Positions 41,627-53,143 of a stretch of DNA of 64,000 nt are shown in pieces. Position 1 is the stretch's first letter, and each line of letters opens with the position of its first letter. Where the stretch lies: the NCBI GenBank assembly GCA_951813565.1, contig OX638351.1, positions 3,776,001 to 3,840,000 on the forward strand, in the 5' to 3' direction. The notes beneath the pieces are model-generated. The model was not told the DNA's origin. It saw nothing but the letters and a program-made list of their open reading frames with translations, and did not search any database. A program made the translations under genes and the position numbers. This stretch comes from an uncultured Poribacteria bacterium. Lineage in GTDB: Bacteria > Poribacteria > WGA-4E > WGA-3G.

Positions 41627-41636
41627 TTTTATGCAT

Positions 41637-41940
41637 GTTGGGTTTCGCACGCTCTACCCATAGATGTCAATTTAAAAAAACATGACACACCTATTCCGAC
41701 TCGGTAGGAGCGTTTCTAACCACTCCGTATTATCTCAAAGGGTCTTGTGGGAGGCGTTTTCAACGCCGATATATCGCGCGGACAAAGCGCTCCACAAAGA
41801 GGTCTTGCCAAGAGTGACAACCAGATAAAGTAAGTCCGATTTATTACCCAAAGGTAGGCGCGTTTACAAAACGCGCCTACCAGGGTGGTGTGCCGCTAAA
41901 TTGACAGTTATGGGTTTCGCACGCTGCCACCCAACCTACG
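41637..41940. repeat. Family D unit flanked by REP halves, with internal REPs
   Basis: GGGTTTCGCACGCT occurs on both sides of CCCATAGATGTCAATTT...AAATTGACAGTTATGGG. Confidence 0.7.
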
Positions 41941-42110
41941 AGATAATGTAATATAATCACTTAGAAATGGTATAGGCTGTGGGTACTATGACTCAAACGT
42001 TTTTAAACTACTGCCCAAATTCCTCAATTAAAATCTTTTTCGCATTTTTTTAAACCGTTTTCCTAAATTCTCCCCTCTTTATAACCGAAATCTAATTGGG
42101 AATTCTGTTT

Positions 42111-45100
42111 ATGCACTACAATTTTATCACTCCAAACAACTTAACAGATGCAGAACTGGTTCGGCTTGTTCAAGCTCGCGATGAATCAGCATTCACGGAA
42201 TTGGTGTCTCGTTATAGCCCACGAATTTGGAATATCGTTGTCGAAAATTCGAGGCAAAGACGGGATGCGGAAGAAATTCTCATGGACATCTGGCTGGCTG
42301 TTTGGGAAAACATCATCGGTCTACGAAAAGCGGAAAGTTTTGGCGGCTGGTTACGCAGAATTGCTTACACCGCCTGCAACAGATACTACGCCTCCAACTT
42401 ACATCGGCAAAACGAAATTGTGCTTAGTTATGAAGATTTAGCTTTGCAGATTGATAGAGAAGCAGAACAGCGTTTTCATGATGCAAGCCTCAGAGCAGAT
42501 GCAAGAGAGGCTGTCCATCACCTTCCACAGAAGGTGCGGTCTGTTGGAATATTGTACTACCTCGAATTGTGGAGTATCAAAGAGATTGCAGATGAACTCA
42601 ACTTAGCAATCGGCACAGTCAAGACGAAGCTAAGCGAAGTCCGACAACTGCTCCGCAAGGAATTTGAGGTAGAGATAGAACCTATAAGGAGGGGAACTAT
42701 GACTCTTGAACAGAAAAAATCTGATAATTTGCAAACCAAGATAAAAGTTATAGGAGTCGGCGGAGCAGGTTGCAATGCTATAAAACGAATGATTGAAGAA
42801 GACTTCGTAGGCATTGAATTCTGTGCTGTTGATACCGATAAGGACACACTTAGCACATGCAACGGTGCAACACAAGTGCAAATAGGTGTTAACACTACTC
42901 AAGGCAGTAGCGCAGATGGAAATTTGGAAATCGGGAAAAGAGCGGCTGCGGAAAACATGGATGAACTCCGATCTATTGTTTCAGACGCAAAAATGGTTTT
43001 CATTACCGCAGGCATGGGCGGTGGAACCGGCACAGCCACTGCACCTCTAATAGCGTCGCTTGCACGAGAGCAAGGGGCATTAACAGCCTGCTTTGTAACA
43101 CGCCCGTTCGATTCTGAAGGCGAACACCGTGCTGAAAAAGCGGCGTATGGATTACGAGAATTGCAAAATAGTTCACGTGTCTGTGCGGATGCTGTTGTCG
43201 TTGTGCCGAACCAACGAGTTCTTGATATGATTGACCAAGAATTGCCGATACAGGAAGCGTTCCAAAAAAGCGATGAAATCCTGGTCCAAGGCGTTAGATG
43301 CATTGCAGATATGCTTGTAGAAACTGGCGAAATTTCTCTTGACTTTGATGATATTCAAAGTGTGCTGCGTGACCAAGGGTCTATTCTCATGGGTATTGGA
43401 AAAGCAAAAGGTGAAAATCGCGCGAAAATCGCTGCAGAAAACGCAATTTCCTCTCCTTTACTTGAAGAAAACAGTATTGCGGGAGACGGTGTGTGGATTG
43501 TTAACATTGCCTCGCCGCCAAATTTCACAATGCAGGAATTGGATCAAGCCATGAAAATCATTGTAGAAACATGTGAAAATGCCCAACCTATCTTCGGATT
43601 AGTCTACAAGGATGAATTAGAACTTAACGATGAAGTTCTTGTAACTGTCCTTGCTAATGGACTTGATTCACAAAAAGAACAGGTTTCTCCAATTTCTTCC
43701 AGCGAACGTAGTGCATCTACTGGCCAAGGCAATGTTATTTCGCCTTCAAGCGGTTCAGAATTTGTTCATCTACACAATCACAGTGAATATAGCTTGTTAG
43801 ACGGTGCGTGTCGAATCCCAGATATGGTGCAGTGGGCAATTGAGAACAGTTCGCCTGCTGTTGCACTTACAGACCACGGTAACATGTTCGGTGCGTGGGA
43901 ATTTTACAACACTGCTAAAGCAGCAGGTGTTAATCCCATTGTCGGATGTGAGGTATATGTTGAAACGGAAAAAGAAAAATCAGATAGCAATTCCCAATGT
44001 TCACCGTCCCATCTCACCTTACTTGCAGAAGACACTGTAGGATATCATAATCTTTTAGAATTGACATCACTGGGATATACAGAAGGTTTCCATAGAAAAC
44101 CGCGCATCAACCTGGAAATGCTGCGTGAACATCACGGTGGCATTATTGCACTGACAGGATGCATTAATGGAATAGTGCCGAAGCTAATTTGTTCTAATCA
44201 AAGAGACGAAGCAGTCCGAAACTTGTTAGAATTGAAAGACATCATGGGAGAGGATAACCTCTTTGTAGAAGTTCAAAACCACTATACTGATGAGGAGTTA
44301 ACGACATATCCAGTGATGGTTGAGTTCGCAAATGAATTCAATCTTCCTATCGTGGGGTCAAACGATTGCCACTACCTCCGAAAATCCGACCACCGCATGC
44401 ACGAGGTCCTTCTCTGTATCCAGACAAAGAAGACCGTCAACGACCCAGAACGGATGCGATTTAACAATCATTTTTACTTTAAAAATGTTGACGAAATGCG
44501 GGAAGCACTTAAGGATTATCCACCCGAAGCAATTATCAATACAGTTGAAATTGCTGATCGGTGTAATCTGAAACTGGATTACGACAAAAGTGTGATGCCA
44601 ATATTTGAGATTCCTGATGGACATACACATAACAGTTATCTGAAAGAACAGTGCTACAAAGGTTTGCAAGAAAAATATGGAGGACATATCTCTGAACCGA
44701 TTCATAGGCGGTTGGATTATGAACTGGATGTTATTCAACAAACTGGTTATGCAAATTATTTTCTGATTGTCGCAGATTACGTCGGCTACGCCAACGAACA
44801 AGGTTATTTACTCTCTGCTCGCGGTTCTGCTGCAAGTAGCCTCGTGCTTTATGCGCTCGGTGTAATCAATTTCAATCCGATGGATCATGGGTGTTTGTTT
44901 GAAAGGTTTTTAAATCTTAATAGAATAAATCCGCCGGACATTGATATAGATTTTGCTGCCCATGCCCGTGACGATGTGATTGATTACCTCGTGAGGAAAT
45001 ACGGTCATGATTCTGTCGGTAAAGTTGCTACCTTTGCTAAGTTGGGGGCAAAAACTGCTATCAAAGATGTCGGACGTGCACTTGAAATCCCTCTTGATAA

Positions 45101-46403
45101 CATAGATACCTTGACAAAACTAATTCCAAACCAGCCGGGGATTGCGCTTGATGATGCTTTGGAACAAGTGTCTGAATTTCAGACGCTTGCTGAACTCCCT
45201 GAAAATAGAGAGTTAATTGAAATTAGCAGAGCAGTAGAAGGTATGAAACGGCATGTCTCATGTCATTCATCTGCAATTGTGGTTTCAAACGGACCACTTA
45301 GCAATTACGCCCCACTTTTCAAGGATAGACATGGACAAATCGCAACGCAATTTGAGGGAAAAACGGTTGAAGATGTTGGCATTATTAAACTTGATACACT
45401 TGGTGTCCGAAGTCTTTCAGAGGTTGCTGATTGTCTCAATATGATTCTGGAAAACCGTGGTCGCAGGATTGCACTTGAAGATATTCCATTTGACGATAAA
45501 CCGACTTATTCACTCATTAGTGAAGGATTGATTGCTGGGTTGTTCCAACTCGAAACCTCTTTCGGTATGTATAATGTGGTTACCGAACTTAAGCCAGAAA
45601 ATTTTGAGGTATTTTCCGCAATTCCTGCGCTTTATCGTCCAGGTCCGTTAGAAAGCGGCATGATGCAGCAGTTTATCAACCGAAAAAATGGATTAGAATC
45701 GGTGAGTTATCTGCATGCGTCGTTTGAGGATGCCCTTAAAAACACTTACGGTGTCTGTATCTATCAGGAACAGGTGATGCAAATTGCGTGTGATATTGCC
45801 GGGTTCACGCTTGGTGAGGCAGATATCCTCCGTGATGCGATAGGAAAAAGGAAAGTAGACGTCCTTGAAGAACAACGTCCGAAATTCATCAATAGGGCAG
45901 TTCAAAAGGGTATTTCCACTAAAGAAGCAGAGGAGATATACGACCACCTTGAACAACTTGGCAAATATGCTTTCAACAAATCGCACTCCGTAGCTTATGC
46001 GCTATTAGCCTACCGAATGGCGTATCTAAAAACGCATTATCCACATGAATTTATGGCAGCAATGATGACGGGAGAGGCAGCAAACAAAGAAAAGATAAAG
46101 CGTTACCAAGCTGAATGTGCGAAACTCGCTGACTTTTTGGATGTAGAAATTAATCTGTTACCGCTTGATATCAACACCAGCGAAAAGAATTGCACTGTGG
46201 ATGGAAACGATATCCGTTTCGGGTTTGTTGCTCTCAAAGGCGTGAGTGATGAAGTGAAAGATTTACTTCTTGTGAAAAGAAATCAGGACGGTTTATTCAC
46301 ATCGATTCAAGATTTCCGTGATCGTTTTGATTCAACAGAGATGGACAAAGAAGTGATTGAAAGTCTCGTCGCCTCAGGTGCATTTAACGCTCTTCCCGCA
46401 TAA
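42111..46403 (+). CDS. ECF sigma factor / FtsZ / DNA polymerase III alpha (DnaE) fusion protein
   Basis: Sigma2 and sigma4 motifs (~42140-42665); FtsZ motifs IKVIGVGGAG and GMGGGTGT (~42738-43662); DnaE motifs FVHLHNHSEYSLLDG, PDIDIDF, KLDTLG and FNKSHS (43758-46403). Confidence 0.9.
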   Translation: MHYNFITPNNLTDAELVRLVQARDESAFTELVSRYSPRIWNIVVENSRQRRDAEEILMDIWLAVWENIIGLRKAESFGGWLRRIAYTACNRYYASNLHRQNEIVLSYEDLALQIDREAEQRFHDASLRADAREAVHHLPQKVRSVGILYYLELWSIKEIADELNLAIGTVKTKLSEVRQLLRKEFEVEIEPIRRGTMTLEQKKSDNLQTKIKVIGVGGAGCNAIKRMIEEDFVGIEFCAVDTDKDTLSTCNGATQVQIGVNTTQGSSADGNLEIGKRAAAENMDELRSIVSDAKMVFITAGMGGGTGTATAPLIASLAREQGALTACFVTRPFDSEGEHRAEKAAYGLRELQNSSRVCADAVVVVPNQRVLDMIDQELPIQEAFQKSDEILVQGVRCIADMLVETGEISLDFDDIQSVLRDQGSILMGIGKAKGENRAKIAAENAISSPLLEENSIAGDGVWIVNIASPPNFTMQELDQAMKIIVETCENAQPIFGLVYKDELELNDEVLVTVLANGLDSQKEQVSPISSSERSASTGQGNVISPSSGSEFVHLHNHSEYSLLDGACRIPDMVQWAIENSSPAVALTDHGNMFGAWEFYNTAKAAGVNPIVGCEVYVETEKEKSDSNSQCSPSHLTLLAEDTVGYHNLLELTSLGYTEGFHRKPRINLEMLREHHGGIIALTGCINGIVPKLICSNQRDEAVRNLLELKDIMGEDNLFVEVQNHYTDEELTTYPVMVEFANEFNLPIVGSNDCHYLRKSDHRMHEVLLCIQTKKTVNDPERMRFNNHFYFKNVDEMREALKDYPPEAIINTVEIADRCNLKLDYDKSVMPIFEIPDGHTHNSYLKEQCYKGLQEKYGGHISEPIHRRLDYELDVIQQTGYANYFLIVADYVGYANEQGYLLSARGSAASSLVLYALGVINFNPMDHGCLFERFLNLNRINPPDIDIDFAAHARDDVIDYLVRKYGHDSVGKVATFAKLGAKTAIKDVGRALEIPLDNIDTLTKLIPNQPGIALDDALEQVSEFQTLAELPENRELIEISRAVEGMKRHVSCHSSAIVVSNGPLSNYAPLFKDRHGQIATQFEGKTVEDVGIIKLDTLGVRSLSEVADCLNMILENRGRRIALEDIPFDDKPTYSLISEGLIAGLFQLETSFGMYNVVTELKPENFEVFSAIPALYRPGPLESGMMQQFINRKNGLESVSYLHASFEDALKNTYGVCIYQEQVMQIACDIAGFTLGEADILRDAIGKRKVDVLEEQRPKFINRAVQKGISTKEAEEIYDHLEQLGKYAFNKSHSVAYALLAYRMAYLKTHYPHEFMAAMMTGEAANKEKIKRYQAECAKLADFLDVEINLLPLDINTSEKNCTVDGNDIRFGFVALKGVSDEVKDLLLVKRNQDGLFTSIQDFRDRFDSTEMDKEVIESLVASGAFNALPA

Positions 46404-46483
46404 TACATCTTTCCTACCATCATGGGCAGGTCATTGTGTCTGCCCATCTTTATGTGCCGATTCCATCCCCTCTTACAAATGGA

Positions 46484-46512
46484 TTGACTTTCCATAAAAT
46501 ATCTGATATACT
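46484..46512 (+). promoter_or_regulatory. Sigma70 promoter
   Basis: TTGACT, 17-bp spacer, TATACT, with an extended -10 TG. Confidence 0.55.
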
Positions 46513-46588
46513 TACAGAAACAGGCGCAGTTGATTGTAGGGTTCAAATTTATCCTTCACATTACCTTTATACTTCAGGAGATGGCGCG

Positions 46589-47260
46589 ATGCAACCCAAA
46601 ATACACTCAGCCCCAGCAATCGTCTATCCCGAATCGGACGGTAAACCTATGGCAGAGACTGACTTACATCGAAATCTGATGTTTGATTATATTAAAATGC
46701 TAACACACCATTTTGAAAACAGGAATGACGTTTATGTATCGGGCAATTTGCTGATATACTATGAAGAAGGCAACCCCAAAAAGTCGGTTGCGCCTGATGT
46801 GTTTGTCGTCTTCGGCGTATCAGAAAAATCCCGTCGTACCTTTTTGACATGGGAAGAGGGGCAAACCCCAGACTTTGTGTTAGAGGTAGCAAGTGCCAGC
46901 ACACATCAAAACGACATCGGACATAAGAAAGATCTTTATGCGTCAGTACTTGAAGTTGAAGAGTATTATATCTACGATCCGTATGGCGAGATAAGTCCGA
47001 ACTTCATAGGTTACCGTTTAGTAGAAGGGGCATATCAAGAAATTGAGTTTGTTGATGAACGACTCCCTTCGCGTGTGCTTGGTTTAGAACTCGGTGAACG
47101 TGATGGTGTATTTGGTCTATACAACCCAGATACTGGAGAATGGTTGCAACCGCCTGAACAGCGTGCCGAACAAGAATCCGCTGCTCGGAAAGACGCTGAA
47201 GCTGAACTTGCAAAAGCCTTAGCTGAACTTGAACGTCTTCGTGCAACCATCAACGATTGA
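46589..47260 (+). CDS. Uma2 family (PD-(D/E)XK) endonuclease
   Basis: YPESDGKPMAET, APDVFV, LEVAS and EYYIYDP motifs. Confidence 0.92.
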   Translation: MQPKIHSAPAIVYPESDGKPMAETDLHRNLMFDYIKMLTHHFENRNDVYVSGNLLIYYEEGNPKKSVAPDVFVVFGVSEKSRRTFLTWEEGQTPDFVLEVASASTHQNDIGHKKDLYASVLEVEEYYIYDPYGEISPNFIGYRLVEGAYQEIEFVDERLPSRVLGLELGERDGVFGLYNPDTGEWLQPPEQRAEQESAARKDAEAELAKALAELERLRATIND

Positions 47261-47302: not shown

Positions 47303-48205
47303 ATGAATAGTACCGAACGTTTCCACAACTTTACCCAAGTCGAACTACCGCAAGGTTTTAAGGAAAGACTCAATAGAAAGCAGGTAGCCGAGATTACGTT
47401 TTCACCGAACGGTTCACGACTTGCAGCAGGCGGTGCCGAACGAATCTGGGTATACGATTTAGCCAGTGGTGAACAGTCTACTGTGCTTTCAGGGCATACA
47501 GATAAAATCCGTGCGATAGCATTCGCGCTAGACAATCGCACCCTCGCCAGTGCAAGTGAGGACAGTACCCTCCGATTATGGGACGCAGACACTGCTAACG
47601 AAATAGCAACGCTCGCAGGCGAATCTTCAAGTTTAGTCAGTGCGTTAGCATCATCTCCAGACGGTGTGCCACTGACCGCGTGGAATGAGGAGACCGCGCT
47701 TATGTTAAGCGGTTCAACTGCTGACCCCGCCAGAATTAGAGCGTTAGCCTTCTCATCAGATGGAAATACGCTTGTGAGCGGCGGTGTGGACGGTAAAATT
47801 CGAGTCTGGGAATTAGAAACTGGTCGTCAGTTGTCATCTATTGCAGCACATGATGGATTAGTATTGGCACTTGCATTTTCCCCTGACGGCAAACTGCTTG
47901 CCAGTGGTGGATCAGATGCTACAGTGCGGTTATGGGAATTAGACAGTAAACATCTTCTTTCAACCTTTACCGCACATTCGGATTCGGTAAATGCCTTAGC
48001 GTTTTCCCTTGATGGGAAAATACTTGCGAGTGGCGGGAGAGATCCAGAAATCCGGTTATGGAATGTAGGAGCGATGGGTCTGATGTCCACTATCCCTGCG
48101 CAAGCAGGTTTTGTGTGGGAATTGGCATTTTGGGGCAGCGATCAAGACGATAAACAACAACTTATCAGTGTAAGCAGAGATGGTGTGCTTTTTGTGAGAG
48201 AATAG
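47303..48205 (+). CDS. WD40 repeat protein
   Basis: Repeated GH/AH...LAFSPDG..LASG..D..(I/V)RLW units. Confidence 0.92.
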   Translation: MNSTERFHNFTQVELPQGFKERLNRKQVAEITFSPNGSRLAAGGAERIWVYDLASGEQSTVLSGHTDKIRAIAFALDNRTLASASEDSTLRLWDADTANEIATLAGESSSLVSALASSPDGVPLTAWNEETALMLSGSTADPARIRALAFSSDGNTLVSGGVDGKIRVWELETGRQLSSIAAHDGLVLALAFSPDGKLLASGGSDATVRLWELDSKHLLSTFTAHSDSVNALAFSLDGKILASGGRDPEIRLWNVGAMGLMSTIPAQAGFVWELAFWGSDQDDKQQLISVSRDGVLFVRE

Positions 48206-48331: not shown

Positions 48332-49700
48332 ATGTGTTATCCTGACCAAAAGTATTATATCATGTTTTTCTTTCAACGCTACAAAGATTTTGAGGTGTCT
48401 ATCAAATACAATCAAACTAAAGGTAAAGGGAGACCTAAAATACATTCTGATAGTTCACTTGTTGTCTTCTTCGCCTTTATGGAACTTAGAGGTATAAATC
48501 GGTTCAAAGCACAGCATCTATTTCTTCTCACACATGCAGACTGGTTGAAGCGGTTCAAGTTCAAAAGTGTCCCTGATCGAACGACCTTATCCCGTCGCTA
48601 TAAACAACTAATACCAAATTAACGAGAATTGCATTGTTTTCATTGCCGATGGTAAGGGCGGGCACAGAGACCCGCTCCTACGATTTAGGGTAATTTGGTA
48701 TTACTTCCTTCTTCCTGTAGGAGCGAGCTCCAGCTCGCGACATCTTATACCAAATTAACGAGAATTGTATTGTTTTCACTGCCGATGGTAAGGGCGGGCA
48801 CAGAGACCCGCCCCTACGATTTAGGGTAATTTGGTATTACTTCCCTCTTCTTGTAGGAGCGAGCTCCAGCTCGCGACATCTTATACCAAATTAACGAGAA
48901 TTGCATTGTTTTCACTGCCGATGGTAAGGGCGGGCACAGAGACCCGCCCCTACGATTTAGGGTAATTTGGTATAACACTGCGTATTGAGCAGTTTGTTGA
49001 GTATCTCGGTGATTTGGGTGTATCTTTAGACACTCAGACCCCCCGAGATATTGTCTATGAAGACAAAAGTCTCTATAAAGCACAAGGCAGTGTATGGCAT
49101 CAAAAGCACCGAAAAGCGAACCACATCCTTGAAGGATTACGCGCCCTGGATACAGATGCGAGTTGGTCAACAAGCAAGTATCGCGGATGGGTTTATGGGT
49201 ATGGACTTCATCTCACAACTACTGCCAACGGATTTCCACGGTTCGCCGATGTTTATACTGCTTCTGTGAGTGAAAAAACGGGACTTGACCAAAAGATTGA
49301 TGCGCTGCTTGATCGGAATATTAGGTATATCGTAGCAGATGCTGGCTATACTGACTTTGCGCGTATCCAGACACACGCAAAAAACGGATTATTCCTTTTG
49401 ACACCCATAACGGTTGCTAAAAACAACAAAAAGTTAGCTTATCTTGAGGCGATTGAAACATCACCACACCTACAAGCATATCAGCAAAAACGCAAAACAA
49501 CCATTGAACCGATCTTTAGTCTGCTATGCGAACTGACAGGAACAGATAATAATCAGAAACAACTTCCGGTGAGCCGTATTGAAAATGTCAAACCCTTTTT
49601 ATTATTGTCAATCGTCCTGCTACAAATAGCAATGTTAGTCAACCTAATTTGGAACTTACCAAGTAGAGAAGTTTCACGGATGATCGCTTTATTTCAATAA
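48332..49700 (+). pseudogene. DDE transposase split by a 364-bp insertion
   Basis: PDRTTLSRR, WVYGYGLHL, ADAGY and RKTTIEP motifs. Removing 48611-48974 restores a 334-aa frame. Confidence 0.88.
48611..48974. repeat. 136-bp-period tandem array (three TIR-bounded ~91-bp units and two REP linkers)
   Basis: Units ATACCAAATTA...TAATTTGGTAT start at 48611, 48747 and 48883; a TA duplication flanks the array. Confidence 0.9.
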
Positions 49701-49806: not shown

Positions 49807-52800
49807 CTATTCATCAAGGGCGAAACGTAGCACACCCCGTCTGAATGTGCCAACATAGAGCGTATTCCCATCAACATCAAGACAAGAAACAGGATACGGA
49901 ATTTCTGGAGTGACTTGATGCCAAGTGTCTGAACCCTCCTGCAGTTGATATACTTTTCGCCTTGCAGTGCTGTAAACCGTTGTGCCATCCACAGCAAACC
50001 TAACCACGACAAGAGGAATTCCCTCTGCGTCAGTAAGCGTCTGCCAGTCAGTGCCATTTCTTGACCGAATAACACCTTTGTCGGTTGCCACATAAACAGA
50101 GTTTCCAACGAAAGTTATTGCATTGAAACGTCCAACAGAAAATGGTAGATTTTCGGTAACATCGTTCCAAGTGTCGCCTTCATCAAACGATTGCATGAGG
50201 CGTCCATCCCGTTTGCCGACGTAAACAGTTTTTCCTGAAACGGCAAACCATAAATTCTTGGCAATGACAAATTTGGAATTTAAGTCTATATGAATAGGTT
50301 TATCTATATCCGATATTCCTGTGTTGTACCAATTCAGGGATCCAATACGCCATCTGAAGAGTTCGTTTTGATATTCTAAGTAGTAAGCTGTGTCTGTAAC
50401 CGAGAAATTTCCAAGATGTGCCACAATTAGAAATTGGTTTTCGTTTTGACTAAGCTCAATCCACTCATGCGAAAATTGGCTCTTTGTCAAACCGAGTACA
50501 TTTTTCAAAACGGGTACTCTTGGAATATCTGTGAAGCTATTTCCTTCGGAAGACAATCGCAAAAAACGAGATGTACCTTTTCTACCTATACTGGCATAGA
50601 GTTCTCCATTGAATACTTCAATGTGTGTGAAGTCACTCGTATCGTTGGAAAAGGGTATCCATGATTCTCCATCATCAATAGAATACACAAGTCCAGTTTC
50701 TGTGTTCGCGTAAAGAGTCCCGTTAAGAACAATTAATTGTTGGACATTCGTATTCACAAGTCCGGTATTAAATTGATGCCACGACTTACCACTATCAGTT
50801 GAGCGATGAATCCCGTGAGTACCGCTTCTAAAGATAGTAGTTGCATTCAACATTACTGCCCCGGTAGCACTACTAATTTTGTCAGCCCCAACTTCAACTG
50901 TCGCCTTTTTTCCAGCATCAATTGAGTAGAATTCGCCTGCAGCTAAAGATGTCCACTCCTCACCAGCATCAATTGAGTAGAAGTGATCCTCACCGTCCAT
51001 CACCATCACTTTTACTCCGGATGCGGTAATCTTGGGAATTGAATTTTCCGCATTTGCCCATTGTATTTCTGATATTGCATAAGTGCTGTCTGGTAATTTA
51101 TTCACCTGTGGTTCTCTCTTTGGAGAACGACGGTTTTGAAGCTGTTTCTTGTCAGGAGAATCATACCTCGGAGTTATAGATTTCCACGAATTACCACGGT
51201 CGGTTGAGTGAAAAAGGGACCAAGCGATTCTTAGGGCTTCATTTCCCCTTAATTCTATCCAGCCTGGCAATTGTTTATCAGAAGGTGGAATAACAGTTGT
51301 GATGATACTTTCTGAACCGACTTTATATAATAGACCATCAGAAAATATCACTCCTTCCATTATTGCTGCAACATAGAGATGATTTTCTGTAACTACTAAC
51401 GCTACGATATCAAGTGTCTCATCTTGTGCATCCTCAGGATTGATAGATACTTGCTCCCACGTATCAGAATTAAGACGAAAGAGTCCTTTATCGGTACCCG
51501 CAAAGACAGTATTCTCAATCGCGGCGATTGCTTTAATTTTCTTGTCTTTTAGACCTTCGGGTAGTAGGGTCCACGATTTACCTGCATTATCCGTACGGAA
51601 TACTACGTTAGTATACGCAAGGTAGATAGTCATGTCGCTTAGTGCACCTGGAATTCCATCTGTTATTACCATATCAACAAGTGGTCCTTCTATAGACTCA
51701 CAGAGTGTCTCCCATGTTTCTCCTCTATCTGTAGAAGCCAGTATCTCATTCATGGTCGCGAGGTAGAGCGTATCCTGACGTTCTACTACGGGCCACCACA
51801 TTGGACTGGGTGTCAGTAAAGTGTGTGAAGGTCCCTTAGTGTTATTAATAAGTTTCCACGCAGTACCATCATCTGTGAGTCTGTATAAACCGTGTCGTGT
51901 GCCTGCGAACACGTCCCCACGGGTTGTTGTGAAGAGCCCAGACACTAAACCGCCTTCCGGTCCTTTCGTTTGTACCCACTGTTGTTTTGCGTTTGAAACC
52001 TCAGTTTCATCTGCGTTCGCTGCAGCGAATAGTGGATCATCAGGTTTCTGTCCTACCCCATTGCTCTTACCTGTTAAATCCACATGTCCAACTTGATTTC
52101 TCACTGCAGGTTTTGCTGGAGAATCAATGACAAGTTGTGCTTCTGATATTTCAATTGTTCGTTCTGATTGTGCGTTTAAGTTATACGGCTTTTGAAAATC
52201 ACTAAGACGTTGTGTGCCAATTCCCATCAGCAATAGCACTAAGACTGCAGAGGCAGCAGACATTGCTAACGGCACAAGTGGCTTACTGCCTGAAGGTGCG
52301 ACCGGATTAAGTCGTGAAATTTCTTTCATAATGTTTTCTGTCATTTGTGTTGGCAGTTGGAAACTACTAAGGTTTTCTTTAATCATTGTTTCCTCTTTCT
52401 TTAATCGGTTGCGGGCGCGGCTAAGACGGCTCCTAACAGTATTTGGGGATACACCGAGAAACTCGCTAATAGATTCACACTTCATTTCTCCAAGATAGTG
52501 AAGCGTCATCACTGTTCGTTCGCTTTCTGGCAATTTTTTGAGCAAATCTCTAACCAGTTCACGCCGAATTTCGTTAGCATCTGCCTCTCGCTGTTCTTCC
52601 ACGTATTGTGTATATGCCACTTGGTCCACCTCTTTGCTATCAACGGTTTCTAAGGATTGTATCGGCAGGCGTTTCTTTCGGAGCCATTCATTACACAGGT
52701 TAGTGGCAATAACATAGAGCCACCCACAAAATAGGTTGTGATTTTTCAAAGTTCCGAGTTTTTGATATGCCCTAAGAAAAACGTCCTGTGTAATTTCCTG

Positions 52801-52935
52801 TGCGATATGAAAATCACCAATTTTCTGCCATGCCAGCGCGTGTACGCCCTTTTGATATTTTTCTACTAAGGCGGTGAACGCTGATTGATCACCGTCTAAT
52901 GTACGCTGAATCAGTTCAGCATCCTTCTTTTTCAT
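49807..52935 (-). CDS. ECF sigma factor fused via a TM helix to a BNR/Asp-box beta-propeller
   Basis: AQEITQDVFLRAY and TVRSRLSRAR sigma motifs, a TM, and S.D.G..W repeats; GGAGG RBS. Confidence 0.9.
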   Translation of the reverse strand: MKKKDAELIQRTLDGDQSAFTALVEKYQKGVHALAWQKIGDFHIAQEITQDVFLRAYQKLGTLKNHNLFCGWLYVIATNLCNEWLRKKRLPIQSLETVDSKEVDQVAYTQYVEEQREADANEIRRELVRDLLKKLPESERTVMTLHYLGEMKCESISEFLGVSPNTVRSRLSRARNRLKKEETMIKENLSSFQLPTQMTENIMKEISRLNPVAPSGSKPLVPLAMSAASAVLVLLLMGIGTQRLSDFQKPYNLNAQSERTIEISEAQLVIDSPAKPAVRNQVGHVDLTGKSNGVGQKPDDPLFAAANADETEVSNAKQQWVQTKGPEGGLVSGLFTTTRGDVFAGTRHGLYRLTDDGTAWKLINNTKGPSHTLLTPSPMWWPVVERQDTLYLATMNEILASTDRGETWETLCESIEGPLVDMVITDGIPGALSDMTIYLAYTNVVFRTDNAGKSWTLLPEGLKDKKIKAIAAIENTVFAGTDKGLFRLNSDTWEQVSINPEDAQDETLDIVALVVTENHLYVAAIMEGVIFSDGLLYKVGSESIITTVIPPSDKQLPGWIELRGNEALRIAWSLFHSTDRGNSWKSITPRYDSPDKKQLQNRRSPKREPQVNKLPDSTYAISEIQWANAENSIPKITASGVKVMVMDGEDHFYSIDAGEEWTSLAAGEFYSIDAGKKATVEVGADKISSATGAVMLNATTIFRSGTHGIHRSTDSGKSWHQFNTGLVNTNVQQLIVLNGTLYANTETGLVYSIDDGESWIPFSNDTSDFTHIEVFNGELYASIGRKGTSRFLRLSSEGNSFTDIPRVPVLKNVLGLTKSQFSHEWIELSQNENQFLIVAHLGNFSVTDTAYYLEYQNELFRWRIGSLNWYNTGISDIDKPIHIDLNSKFVIAKNLWFAVSGKTVYVGKRDGRLMQSFDEGDTWNDVTENLPFSVGRFNAITFVGNSVYVATDKGVIRSRNGTDWQTLTDAEGIPLVVVRFAVDGTTVYSTARRKVYQLQEGSDTWHQVTPEIPYPVSCLDVDGNTLYVGTFRRGVLRFALDE

Positions 52936-53143
52936 GGGAATCCTCCGGAGTTTTAGCATCCCTTGATTAATTAGACGCATCTTAGATCGTAAAATGTTGC
53001 ATTTTTTTTATGGTGAGCAGAAAATTAAATAATTTTCAATTTGTTGGCAATTATGTTATACTTTCATGCTATACTTTAATAGAAGCACACTGTAATGAAA
53101 AGGATTTTATAACCTTATATATTCACTTGGGTGGAGGAAAGGA

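Follow-up and report, generated by a model that had tools for sequence, protein, structure and literature searches.

Several groups of extracytoplasmic function (ECF) sigma factors carry a regulatory extension fused to their C-terminus, among them ECF41 with a SnoaL-like domain, ECF42 with TPR repeats and the CorE-type ECF238, as described in the main texts of the respective studies (bioRxiv 10.1101/2019.12.11.873521; PMC8999054). Here we describe a gene in which an ECF-type sigma factor continues, in one reading frame, into copies of the cell division protein FtsZ and of DnaE, the alpha subunit of DNA polymerase III (Pol III). The gene lies in a stretch of 64,000 nucleotides, called the window below, from an uncultured Poribacteria bacterium (assembly GCA_951813565.1, contig OX638351.1, positions 3,776,001 to 3,840,000), whose genome is a single contig of 5.43 Mb. 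Like ECF41, ECF42 and ECF238 the fusion starts with a sigma2–sigma4 core followed by a fused extension, and an ECF-like promoter is found upstream. Unlike in these groups, however, the extension (residues 200–1435) comprises about 1240 residues and is made up of paralogs of two essential enzymes, not of a small ligand- or protein-binding domain. FtsZ and tubulin are not mentioned in the main texts of the two studies, nor is Pol III in that of the preprint. Full-text literature searches likewise retrieved no sigma–FtsZ or sigma–DnaE fusion, the supplements of the ECF classification preprint, which might list one, lying outside the search.

The open reading frame (ORF) extends from 42096 to 46403 on the forward strand, begins with TTG and encodes 1435 amino acids without an interrupting stop. 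The conserved start is the ATG at 42111, present in all 30 ortholog loci, and the coding sequence counted from it (42111 to 46403, forward strand like all its parts) has 1430 codons with the TAA stop at 46401–46403. The sigma part consists of regions 2 and 4 only, which fits the ECF (group 4) sigma-70 profile in Pfam and NCBIfam: region 2 (Sigma70_r2, PF04542) occupies residues 36–100 (42201–42395) and region 4 (PF08281/PF04545) residues 136–188 (42501–42659), with the Sigma70_r4_2 match at residues 136–185. Then follow the FtsZ GTPase domain (Tubulin, PF00091; residues 215–379, 42738–43232) and FtsZ_C (PF12327; residues 428–524, 43377–43667), with the T7 loop (residues 413–419) just upstream of the latter. 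A Ser/Thr/Pro-rich linker (residues 525–555, 43668–43760) leads into DnaE, of which the PHP domain (PF02811; residues 558–729, 43767–44282), the palm/thumb with the catalytic aspartates (DNA_pol3_alpha, PF07733; residues 847–1103, 44634–45404), the fingers (DNA_pol3_finger, PF17657; residues 1108–1272, 45417–45911) and the helix-hairpin-helix (HhH) domain (HHH_6, PF14579; residues 1352–1433, 46149–46394) are present; the protein ends here, before the clamp motif. All these Pfam matches exceed the curated cut-offs. In NCBIfam the fusion scores 63.5 bits with the sigma70-ECF family TIGR02937 (range given 63.5–68.3; cut-off 42.9), 306.6 with the ftsZ equivalog TIGR00065 (cut-off 295.2) and 1031.3 with the dnaE equivalog NF004226 (cut-off 1002), of which profile positions 4–884 of 1146 are covered. 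An earlier note, made from the letters of the window, had reported a single stop-free frame with ECF sigma, FtsZ and DnaE modules. The ORF list and both profile collections bear this out, and the motifs GMGGGTGTA, PDIDID and KLD are indeed found at nucleotides 43011, 44934 and 45387. The gene thus joins an ECF-type sigma factor, a complete FtsZ core and the catalytic core of Pol III alpha.

This architecture is not peculiar to one assembly. A word-indexed search of 5.8 billion proteins found the full set of sigma, FtsZ and DnaE domains in 118 of the 120 best clusters listed (58–100% identity). Some of them lie on contigs of 4–6.7 Mb, and their source annotation is 'DNA polymerase III subunit alpha' or 'cell division protein FtsZ' of Candidatus Poribacteria. 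We also searched 176 species genomes of the phylum, which fall into 11 families. The genome counts given here and below for the family of the window, f1, rest on the matches listed (332 and 1200 weaker matches lie outside them), and related genomes and orthologs are not independent samples. The full-length frame is confined to f1, where it occurs in 60 of 112 genomes: 18/40 in genus g1, 1/1 in g5 and 41/65 in g6, with none in g2 (0/3), g3 (0/1) and g4 (0/2); contig ends cut three of the 60 genes. All 30 loci that we fetched contain one uninterrupted frame. Four studies contributed nine sequencing runs in which no less than 74% of the sampled words were present. A 2314-nt contig from one of these studies spans 42075–44388 with 13 differences and crosses both junctions; a contig of another run covers the whole stretch without a difference and may be the source assembly. 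The contiguity of the two junctions, which the earlier note had wanted confirmed by reads, is thereby established through relatives and an independent contig, and the architecture which it proposed to look for in related genomes is present there.

Two shorter architectures accompany the triple fusion (type A) in family f1, a sigma–FtsZ protein of about 550–700 residues (type B) and a sigma factor joined to the N-terminal GTPase domain of FtsZ only (type C). When residues 6–545 were compared with 1.84 billion representative proteins by filter-free HMMER, sigma and FtsZ occurred together in three clusters plus fragments only, one cluster each of type A, B and C. Five genomes of the four families f2–f5, in which every candidate was scored, contain no sigma–FtsZ protein; they encode canonical DnaE and one FtsZ, two of them also a DnaE2-like paralog. 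Since only types A, B and C match both sigma and FtsZ and the f2–f5 genomes lack such a protein, the sigma–FtsZ architecture appears to be confined to f1. We conclude that the fusion is a genuine, vertically inherited gene of one family of Candidatus Poribacteria.

The modules are maintained by selection. Median omega (dN/dS) values over 14 ortholog pairs, calculated by the approximate method of Nei and Gojobori, are 0.09 for sigma (residues 6–195), 0.20 for FtsZ, 0.08 for PHP, 0.12 for palm/thumb, 0.15 for the fingers and 0.24 for HhH; the least constrained segment is the linker between FtsZ and DnaE with 0.35. As judged from these values all fusion modules are under purifying selection. One gene pair (L009 and L011, from genomes G089 and G087) shows a roughly ten-fold spread of synonymous divergence (dS) along its length, with 0.10 in sigma, 1.1 in FtsZ and 0.22 in PHP, which suggests recombination or gene conversion limited to the FtsZ part. 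The fused modules do diverge more than the housekeeping paralogs of the same genome pairs: across genera the identity is 71% for fused and 82% for canonical DnaE, and 55–58% compared with 75% for FtsZ.

This faster evolution, together with the erosion or loss of the DnaE module in many lineages described below, could speak for a chimeric assembly or a neutral read-through fusion heading for loss. We nevertheless regard such an origin as so improbable that it can practically be set aside. An assembly chimera is ruled out by the 60 f1 genomes with single-contig assemblies among them, by the 30/30 open frames and by the independent contig crossing the junctions. A pseudogene in neutral decay is ruled out as well, because omega amounts to 0.08–0.24 and neither values near 1 nor scattered stops are seen; the conserved end point of the long orthologs also speaks against it.

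Comparison with the rest of the genome indicates where the modules come from. The canonical DnaE of the same genome has 1176 amino acids and is 69.3% identical to residues 554–1433 of the fusion; beyond this shared part it has a QMNLF clamp-type motif, then an OB-like region and a C-terminal domain. The canonical FtsZ (448 amino acids, 59.5% identical to residues 204–544) ends with a long C-terminal linker and the peptide DIPAFLR, and its gene lies directly downstream of ftsA. Separate housekeeping copies of both genes, which the earlier note had proposed to search for, are therefore present. A type C gene is found in addition, its product of 412 amino acids being 59.3% identical to residues 4–406 of the fusion. 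For the phylogenetic analysis we used a maximum-likelihood quick search (LG+G4) with support from the Shimodaira–Hasegawa-like approximate likelihood ratio test (SH-aLRT) only and no bootstraps. In the DnaE tree, which also contained 12 canonical DnaE proteins of f1 and five from families f2–f5, the 29 fused modules are monophyletic (SH-aLRT 100) and nested among the canonical f1 proteins, themselves a clade (100); they split by genus, as vertical descent predicts. In the FtsZ tree 42 sigma-fused domains (29 of type A, nine of type B and four of type C) form one clade (95) within the canonical FtsZ of f1 (99). These trees indicate that the FtsZ and DnaE modules each arose once, by duplication of housekeeping genes within the family, and with the omega values they describe single-origin paralogs under purifying selection. 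Two further explanations for the DnaE part were rejected. A substitute for a missing Pol I is ruled out, since the genome encodes Pol I (polA), and so is a split DnaE with its remainder just downstream: the next ORF encodes a Uma2-family protein and the genome contains only two DNA_pol3_alpha matches.

Set against the canonical proteins, the fused copies are truncated at particular places. The fused DnaE corresponds to the N-terminal 880 residues or so (module residues 2–880 align with 5–891 of 1160 in the full-length Pol III alpha chain 5fku). It lacks the clamp motif, the OB fold and the C-terminal domain and stops about 30 residues before the canonical QMNLF, whereas canonical DnaE runs on for some 290 residues beyond this point. 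All long orthologs share one end point, which in the window reads …SGAFNALPA. One ortholog of 1743 amino acids (L055, G137:C1:2600049–2605280) carries about 300 unrelated residues past the usual DnaE end, probably by read-through into the downstream gene. The fused FtsZ is without the C-terminal linker and the tether peptide seen in canonical FtsZ; instead a Ser/Thr/Pro-rich stretch of about 30 residues joins it to SEFVHLH, canonical DnaE starting with MSSEFVHLH. Judged by these alignments, each module keeps its catalytic body and has lost the piece by which it plugs into its native machine. The lost parts normally tie FtsZ to membrane anchors and Pol III alpha to the clamp and the clamp loader.

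The polymerase part is not equally stable in all lineages. Type B replaces the triple fusion in 25 further f1 genomes. Eight of the nine type B genes fetched occupy the same syntenic locus as the triple fusion, downstream of conserved genes for a xylose-isomerase-like TIM barrel, an enolase-superfamily enzyme, a short-chain dehydrogenase, TatD and a BPD_transp_2 permease; the ninth, a second copy in genome G091, has different upstream genes. DnaE remnants persist in four of the nine. In three of these (G105, G068 and G154) the first 15–45 DnaE residues are followed by a stop, and in G173 an in-frame internal deletion joins the N-terminus of PHP to the end of the fingers. One case (G151) is ambiguous, and in the remaining four the tail is unrelated. 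Type B proteins lie scattered between those of type A on the FtsZ tree, where the well-supported branches require no fewer than three changes. Within type A, a clade of short proteins (about 1350 amino acids) has lost the HhH domain. Because of the syntenic locus, the DnaE remnants and the scattered position of type B on the tree, the comparison of these genes leads us to the view that the triple fusion is ancestral to most of family f1 and that its polymerase part was shed several times. By the same comparison sigma–FtsZ is the constant core of the gene and DnaE an accessory that was repeatedly deleted.

The active sites of the polymerase module are strictly kept where it is present. We counted residue conservation over 70 aligned orthologs. 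Eight positions of the PHP domain, the candidate metal ligands, are invariant (70/70), and the palm aspartates are retained as well (Asp948 in 69, Asp950 in 67, Asp952 and Asp1100 in all 70). In the FtsZ module the residues GGGTGT of the T4 signature GGGTG(S/T)G are kept in 67–70 of the 70; for the final Gly of the signature the window has Ala, and 54 of the orthologs have Gly. The T7 aspartates Asp416 (67/70) and Asp419 (68/70) are also preserved, the Asn preceding them being Ser in the window. At a T3 loop position that is Gly in canonical FtsZ and in type C, 66 of the 70 orthologs have Asp274. In T1, 52 of the 70 have Asp, Asn or Glu instead of Gly223; residue 226, Gly in canonical FtsZ, is Cys in 25, Ser in one and Ala in one. 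That these T1 and T3 changes are derived yet conserved argues for a modified function and not for decay. Two orthologs (L015 and L016, from G088 and G072) carry a 14-residue insertion, apparently a local duplication, just after helix H1 of the FtsZ domain; in both, the third T1 Gly is replaced by Glu.

The intact active sites raise the possibility that the enzyme is the effector and the sigma factor its tether. The sigma factor would then direct a polymerase that works without the clamp, proofreads its own product and sits on an FtsZ-like scaffold, either to RNA polymerase or to particular promoters. The outcome might be local DNA synthesis or repair, or a coupling of the chromosome to the divisome akin to nucleoid occlusion. 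Such an arrangement would account for the polymerase and PHP active sites kept in 67–70 of 70 orthologs, for PHP and palm showing the lowest omega among the enzyme modules, for the HhH DNA-binding domain of the long forms and for a module which is co-extensive with crystallised Pol III alpha chains of 910–927 residues. We still consider it unlikely, since DnaE was deleted repeatedly while sigma–FtsZ persisted, short forms do without the HhH domain, Pol I leaves no obvious gap-filling need and no precedent is known.

We then consider the sigma end of the gene. An ECF-like promoter of the form TTTAAACC-N17-CCTCTT is found at 42049–42079 (+), about 30 nt upstream of the ATG and with the same fixed spacing in the orthologs. 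It occurs in 29 of 29 orthologs with a recognisable start, some 30–50 nt before the ATG; one of them (L019) reads CCTCAT, so that the invariant part of the second block is CCTC. A weight-matrix scan of the own genome gave 34.7 bits for the fusion gene, 34.7 for a site at C1:2184962, 28.4 for the type C gene and 21.8 for a third close sigma paralog; the next match reached 18.2 bits and the best one in 2 Mb of shuffled sequence 13.7. The exact pattern has 57 matches in 41 f1 genomes against three for a reversed-pattern control, and was absent from the two g2 and two g4 genomes searched. Of 31 sites in the 30 fetched loci, 25 directly precede sigma genes of the subfamily of the fusion; the remaining six showed no convincingly recurring target. 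The motif is strongly enriched before sigma genes of this subfamily, as an autoregulated ECF promoter would be, and it may be recognised by the sigma factor of the fusion itself. The perfect copy elsewhere in the genome (C1:2184967–2184997, +) lies about 80 nt upstream of a MacB/FtsX-like permease gene that is split into two overlapping frames by a frameshift, with an insertion-sequence-type transposase gene adjacent.

The sigma domain has 39 matching sigma ORFs in the own genome, and only three of them are close (62–100% identity). The third close paralog, a 315-residue frame at C1:3454038–3454982 (-) with a sigma part 62% identical and the same type of promoter, continues after the sigma domain with …GGIMSSEFV…, which matches the first DnaE residues, and then with what seems to be a piece of another sigma region 2. 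Possibly this frame is a derivative from which the FtsZ part has disappeared.

A second signal for expression lies at the junction of sigma and FtsZ. The sequence AAGGAGGGGAACTATG (42686–42701, +) combines an internal Shine–Dalgarno sequence, AAGGAGGGG at 42686–42694, with an in-frame ATG at 42699–42701 (Met202), at which the ftsZ copy formerly began. All 70 aligned orthologs have Met202, despite the variable linker surrounding it. A Shine–Dalgarno consensus match of at least 4 nt lies 4–17 nt before it in 29 of 29 orthologs, compared with 134 of 1005 other internal Met codons. By contrast, the site before the first ATG is far weaker (GGGA about 10 nt upstream). A database protein of 1230 amino acids (P0121) begins exactly at Met202. 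A sigma-less FtsZ–DnaE protein is therefore likely to be a second product of the gene.

Such a product also features in a further explanation, according to which a self-amplifying sigma factor drives the synthesis of poison subunits (an untethered FtsZ, a polymerase core excluded from the replisome, the sigma-less isoform) and so curbs proliferation of the symbiont. The strong internal ribosome-binding site could make FtsZ–DnaE abundant, the tether peptide, the clamp motif and the C-terminal parts are just what is missing, the promoter looks autoregulatory and the sister type C paralog with its FtsZ N-terminal domain could conceivably cap filaments. A poison, however, needs no conserved catalytic residues, and the altered T1 and T3 loops may prevent co-assembly with the housekeeping protein. 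We regard a growth brake of this kind as decidedly unlikely.

FtsZ and DnaE are apparently not the only partners of this sigma subfamily. A diverged DnaN (sliding clamp) domain lies inside an ORF of 576–616 amino acids in 21 of 46 f1 genomes, and the type C gene is often no more than a few kb away. One such ORF, that of G147, was checked; it starts with a sigma factor of the same subfamily and is preceded by the same promoter. In the own genome dnaN is present only unfused, as a tandem pair of very similar genes (C1:2262523–2264932, -). From these gene structures we conclude that the sigma subfamily has repeatedly captured spare copies of replication and division proteins. It is possible, though we have considerable doubts, that one sigma subfamily is generally hard-wired to spare copies of FtsZ, Pol III and, in sister genes, the clamp, and that it reports the assembly or integrity of these machines to RNA polymerase, be it as a checkpoint or as a decoy, with the internal start co-producing the free partner.

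The decoy idea can be spelled out. The earlier note had raised, as an alternative, decoys for inhibitors of FtsZ or Pol III. In the form considered here the fused FtsZ, DnaE and, in sister genes, clamp copies would mimic the targets of inhibitors from phages or competitors, and binding of an inhibitor would free the sigma factor to mount a response. Modules copied from the own essential proteins of the host and stripped of the motifs that could disturb the real machines would suit such a guard, as would the patchy distribution with repeated loss and the apparent fusion of the same sigma subfamily to the sliding clamp, again an essential protein, where the N-terminal sigma was checked for one ORF. 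The genomic setting does not fit. PADLOC gave no match for the fusion and only weak candidate-family matches for the neighbouring Uma2 and TatD, the locus is syntenic beside metabolic genes and not placed in a defence island, and no defence genes were found behind the promoter motif, neither in the own-genome scan nor at the 31 sites in relatives. Moreover selection is purifying, not diversifying, and the retained catalytic aspartates and PHP ligands would go unexplained. A decoy or guard function thus seems rather improbable to us.

The explanation that we prefer, tentatively and at somewhat less than an even chance, is that of an autoregulated ECF sigma factor whose availability is coupled to the cell-cycle machinery through the FtsZ module, the polymerase core being accessory and probably active. 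The sigma factor would activate its own promoter. The FtsZ module would set the availability of sigma to RNA polymerase, either by nucleotide-dependent self-assembly or by co-assembly with housekeeping FtsZ, and transcription would in this way be coupled to the state of division or replication. The DnaE core could serve as an accessory, probably active polymerase/exonuclease or as a DNA-binding module tethered to the sigma–FtsZ scaffold, and the same mRNA would probably also yield the sigma-less FtsZ–DnaE protein from the internal ribosome-binding site and ATG. That the C-terminal modules act as sensors gating the sigma factor, perhaps by reporting on GTP or the Z-ring and on dNTPs or the primer–template, had been suggested in the earlier note. 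The general idea of regulation by the extension fits the probably autoregulatory promoter, the ECF precedent and the outcome of a Pfam scan of four flanking ORFs, which matched TatD, a permease, Uma2 and WD40 but no anti-sigma family. It had to be amended in that both modules are without the motifs that plug them into divisome and replisome, that DnaE is dispensable in many lineages with sigma–FtsZ as the constant core, and that the internal start may yield a product lacking sigma altogether.

Several observations weigh against this preferred explanation. The main fact that it leaves unexplained is the strict conservation of the polymerase and PHP active sites, which a purely regulatory role does not require. 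With the altered phosphate loops T1 and T3 the fused FtsZ may no longer be able to bind GTP or to co-polymerise in the normal way. We ran AlphaFold2 on residues 6–545 with 30 aligned sequences; the model has a mean predicted local distance difference test (pLDDT) score of 76 and a predicted template modelling score of 0.59. The two helical sigma bundles (pLDDT 75–88) and the FtsZ fold (about 90) are connected by a linker with pLDDT 26–43, and nothing in the model points to FtsZ being docked on sigma in a fixed position. Almost no promoter targets besides sigma genes were found in the own-genome scan and at the 31 sites in relatives, so a regulon is not defined, and co-duplication of the motif with the genes could produce the same picture as autoregulation. 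Possibly the sigma-less protein is even the main product, given that the internal Shine–Dalgarno sequence is the far stronger one. As for expression, one 247-nt contig from one poly-A library matches the sigma part, which is too little to claim transcription. Lastly, 25 of 112 f1 genomes have neither the triple fusion nor a full sigma–FtsZ gene among the matches listed; the gene is therefore not essential.

The surroundings of the fusion in the window are partly particular to this genome. The upstream spacer (41627–42095) measures about 470 nt here compared with about 100 nt for most orthologs. The extra DNA includes a 14-mer in two copies (at 41640 and 41912). It also includes a GC-rich hairpin, the 12-mer core of which has 32 copies in the genome, and as a whole it looks like a small repeat or an insertion resembling a miniature inverted-repeat transposable element. 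On the 3′ side follow a Uma2-family putative endonuclease (46436–47260, +), a WD40 propeller protein (47303–48205, +) and a DDE transposase (49014–49700, +). These neighbours are not conserved beside the orthologs, and the downstream genes vary among genomes. Another ECF sigma factor with regions 2 and 4 is encoded at 49807–52980 (-) and has a C-terminal extension of about 870 amino acids with Sortilin/BNR-like and DUF6242 matches; it is one of 20 of the remaining, more distant sigma ORFs of the genome that are 847–1082 amino acids long.

If the activity of the sigma factor depends on its FtsZ/DnaE extension, the gene would provide a direct link, within a single polypeptide, between transcription and the division and replication machines. 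To our knowledge such links are otherwise known in bacteria only via separate partner proteins. The fusion is also a natural experiment on an FtsZ and a Pol III core freed from divisome and replisome, and the repeated loss of DnaE supplies built-in comparisons. Even though the organisms are uncultured sponge symbionts, all modules are open to expression and assay in a laboratory host.

Finally, the fusion can be compared with the proteins from which its modules derive and with systems of related logic. With housekeeping FtsZ (the closest solved chain is 3vo8, annotated as cell division protein FtsZ) the fused module shares the GTPase and C-terminal domains, the T4 signature and the T7 aspartates. 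It differs by the lack of the C-terminal linker and tether peptide, by Asp for Gly in T3 and by the changed T1 loop, and it is flanked on both ends by large domains and encoded outside the division gene cluster. The DnaE module is co-extensive with crystallised Pol III alpha cores (2hnh and 2hqa with 910–917 residues, 5lew with 927) and has kept the PHP ligands and the palm aspartates; in the fusion, however, the truncation is natural and the module is fused at its N-terminus. Pol III cores without the C-terminal third are active polymerases, and a PHP domain with the full set of ligands can proofread. In Bacillus sporulation the activation of sigma-F is coupled to asymmetric division via SpoIIE, which binds FtsZ, and sigma-28 is coupled to the export of FlgM. 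Like sigma-F/SpoIIE and FlgM/sigma-28 the fusion may tie the activity of a sigma factor to the assembly state of a large machine, which we regard as a likeness and not as membership: the sigma-F and sigma-28 systems use separate anti-sigma or phosphatase proteins, whereas in the poribacterial fusion the link would be hard-wired.

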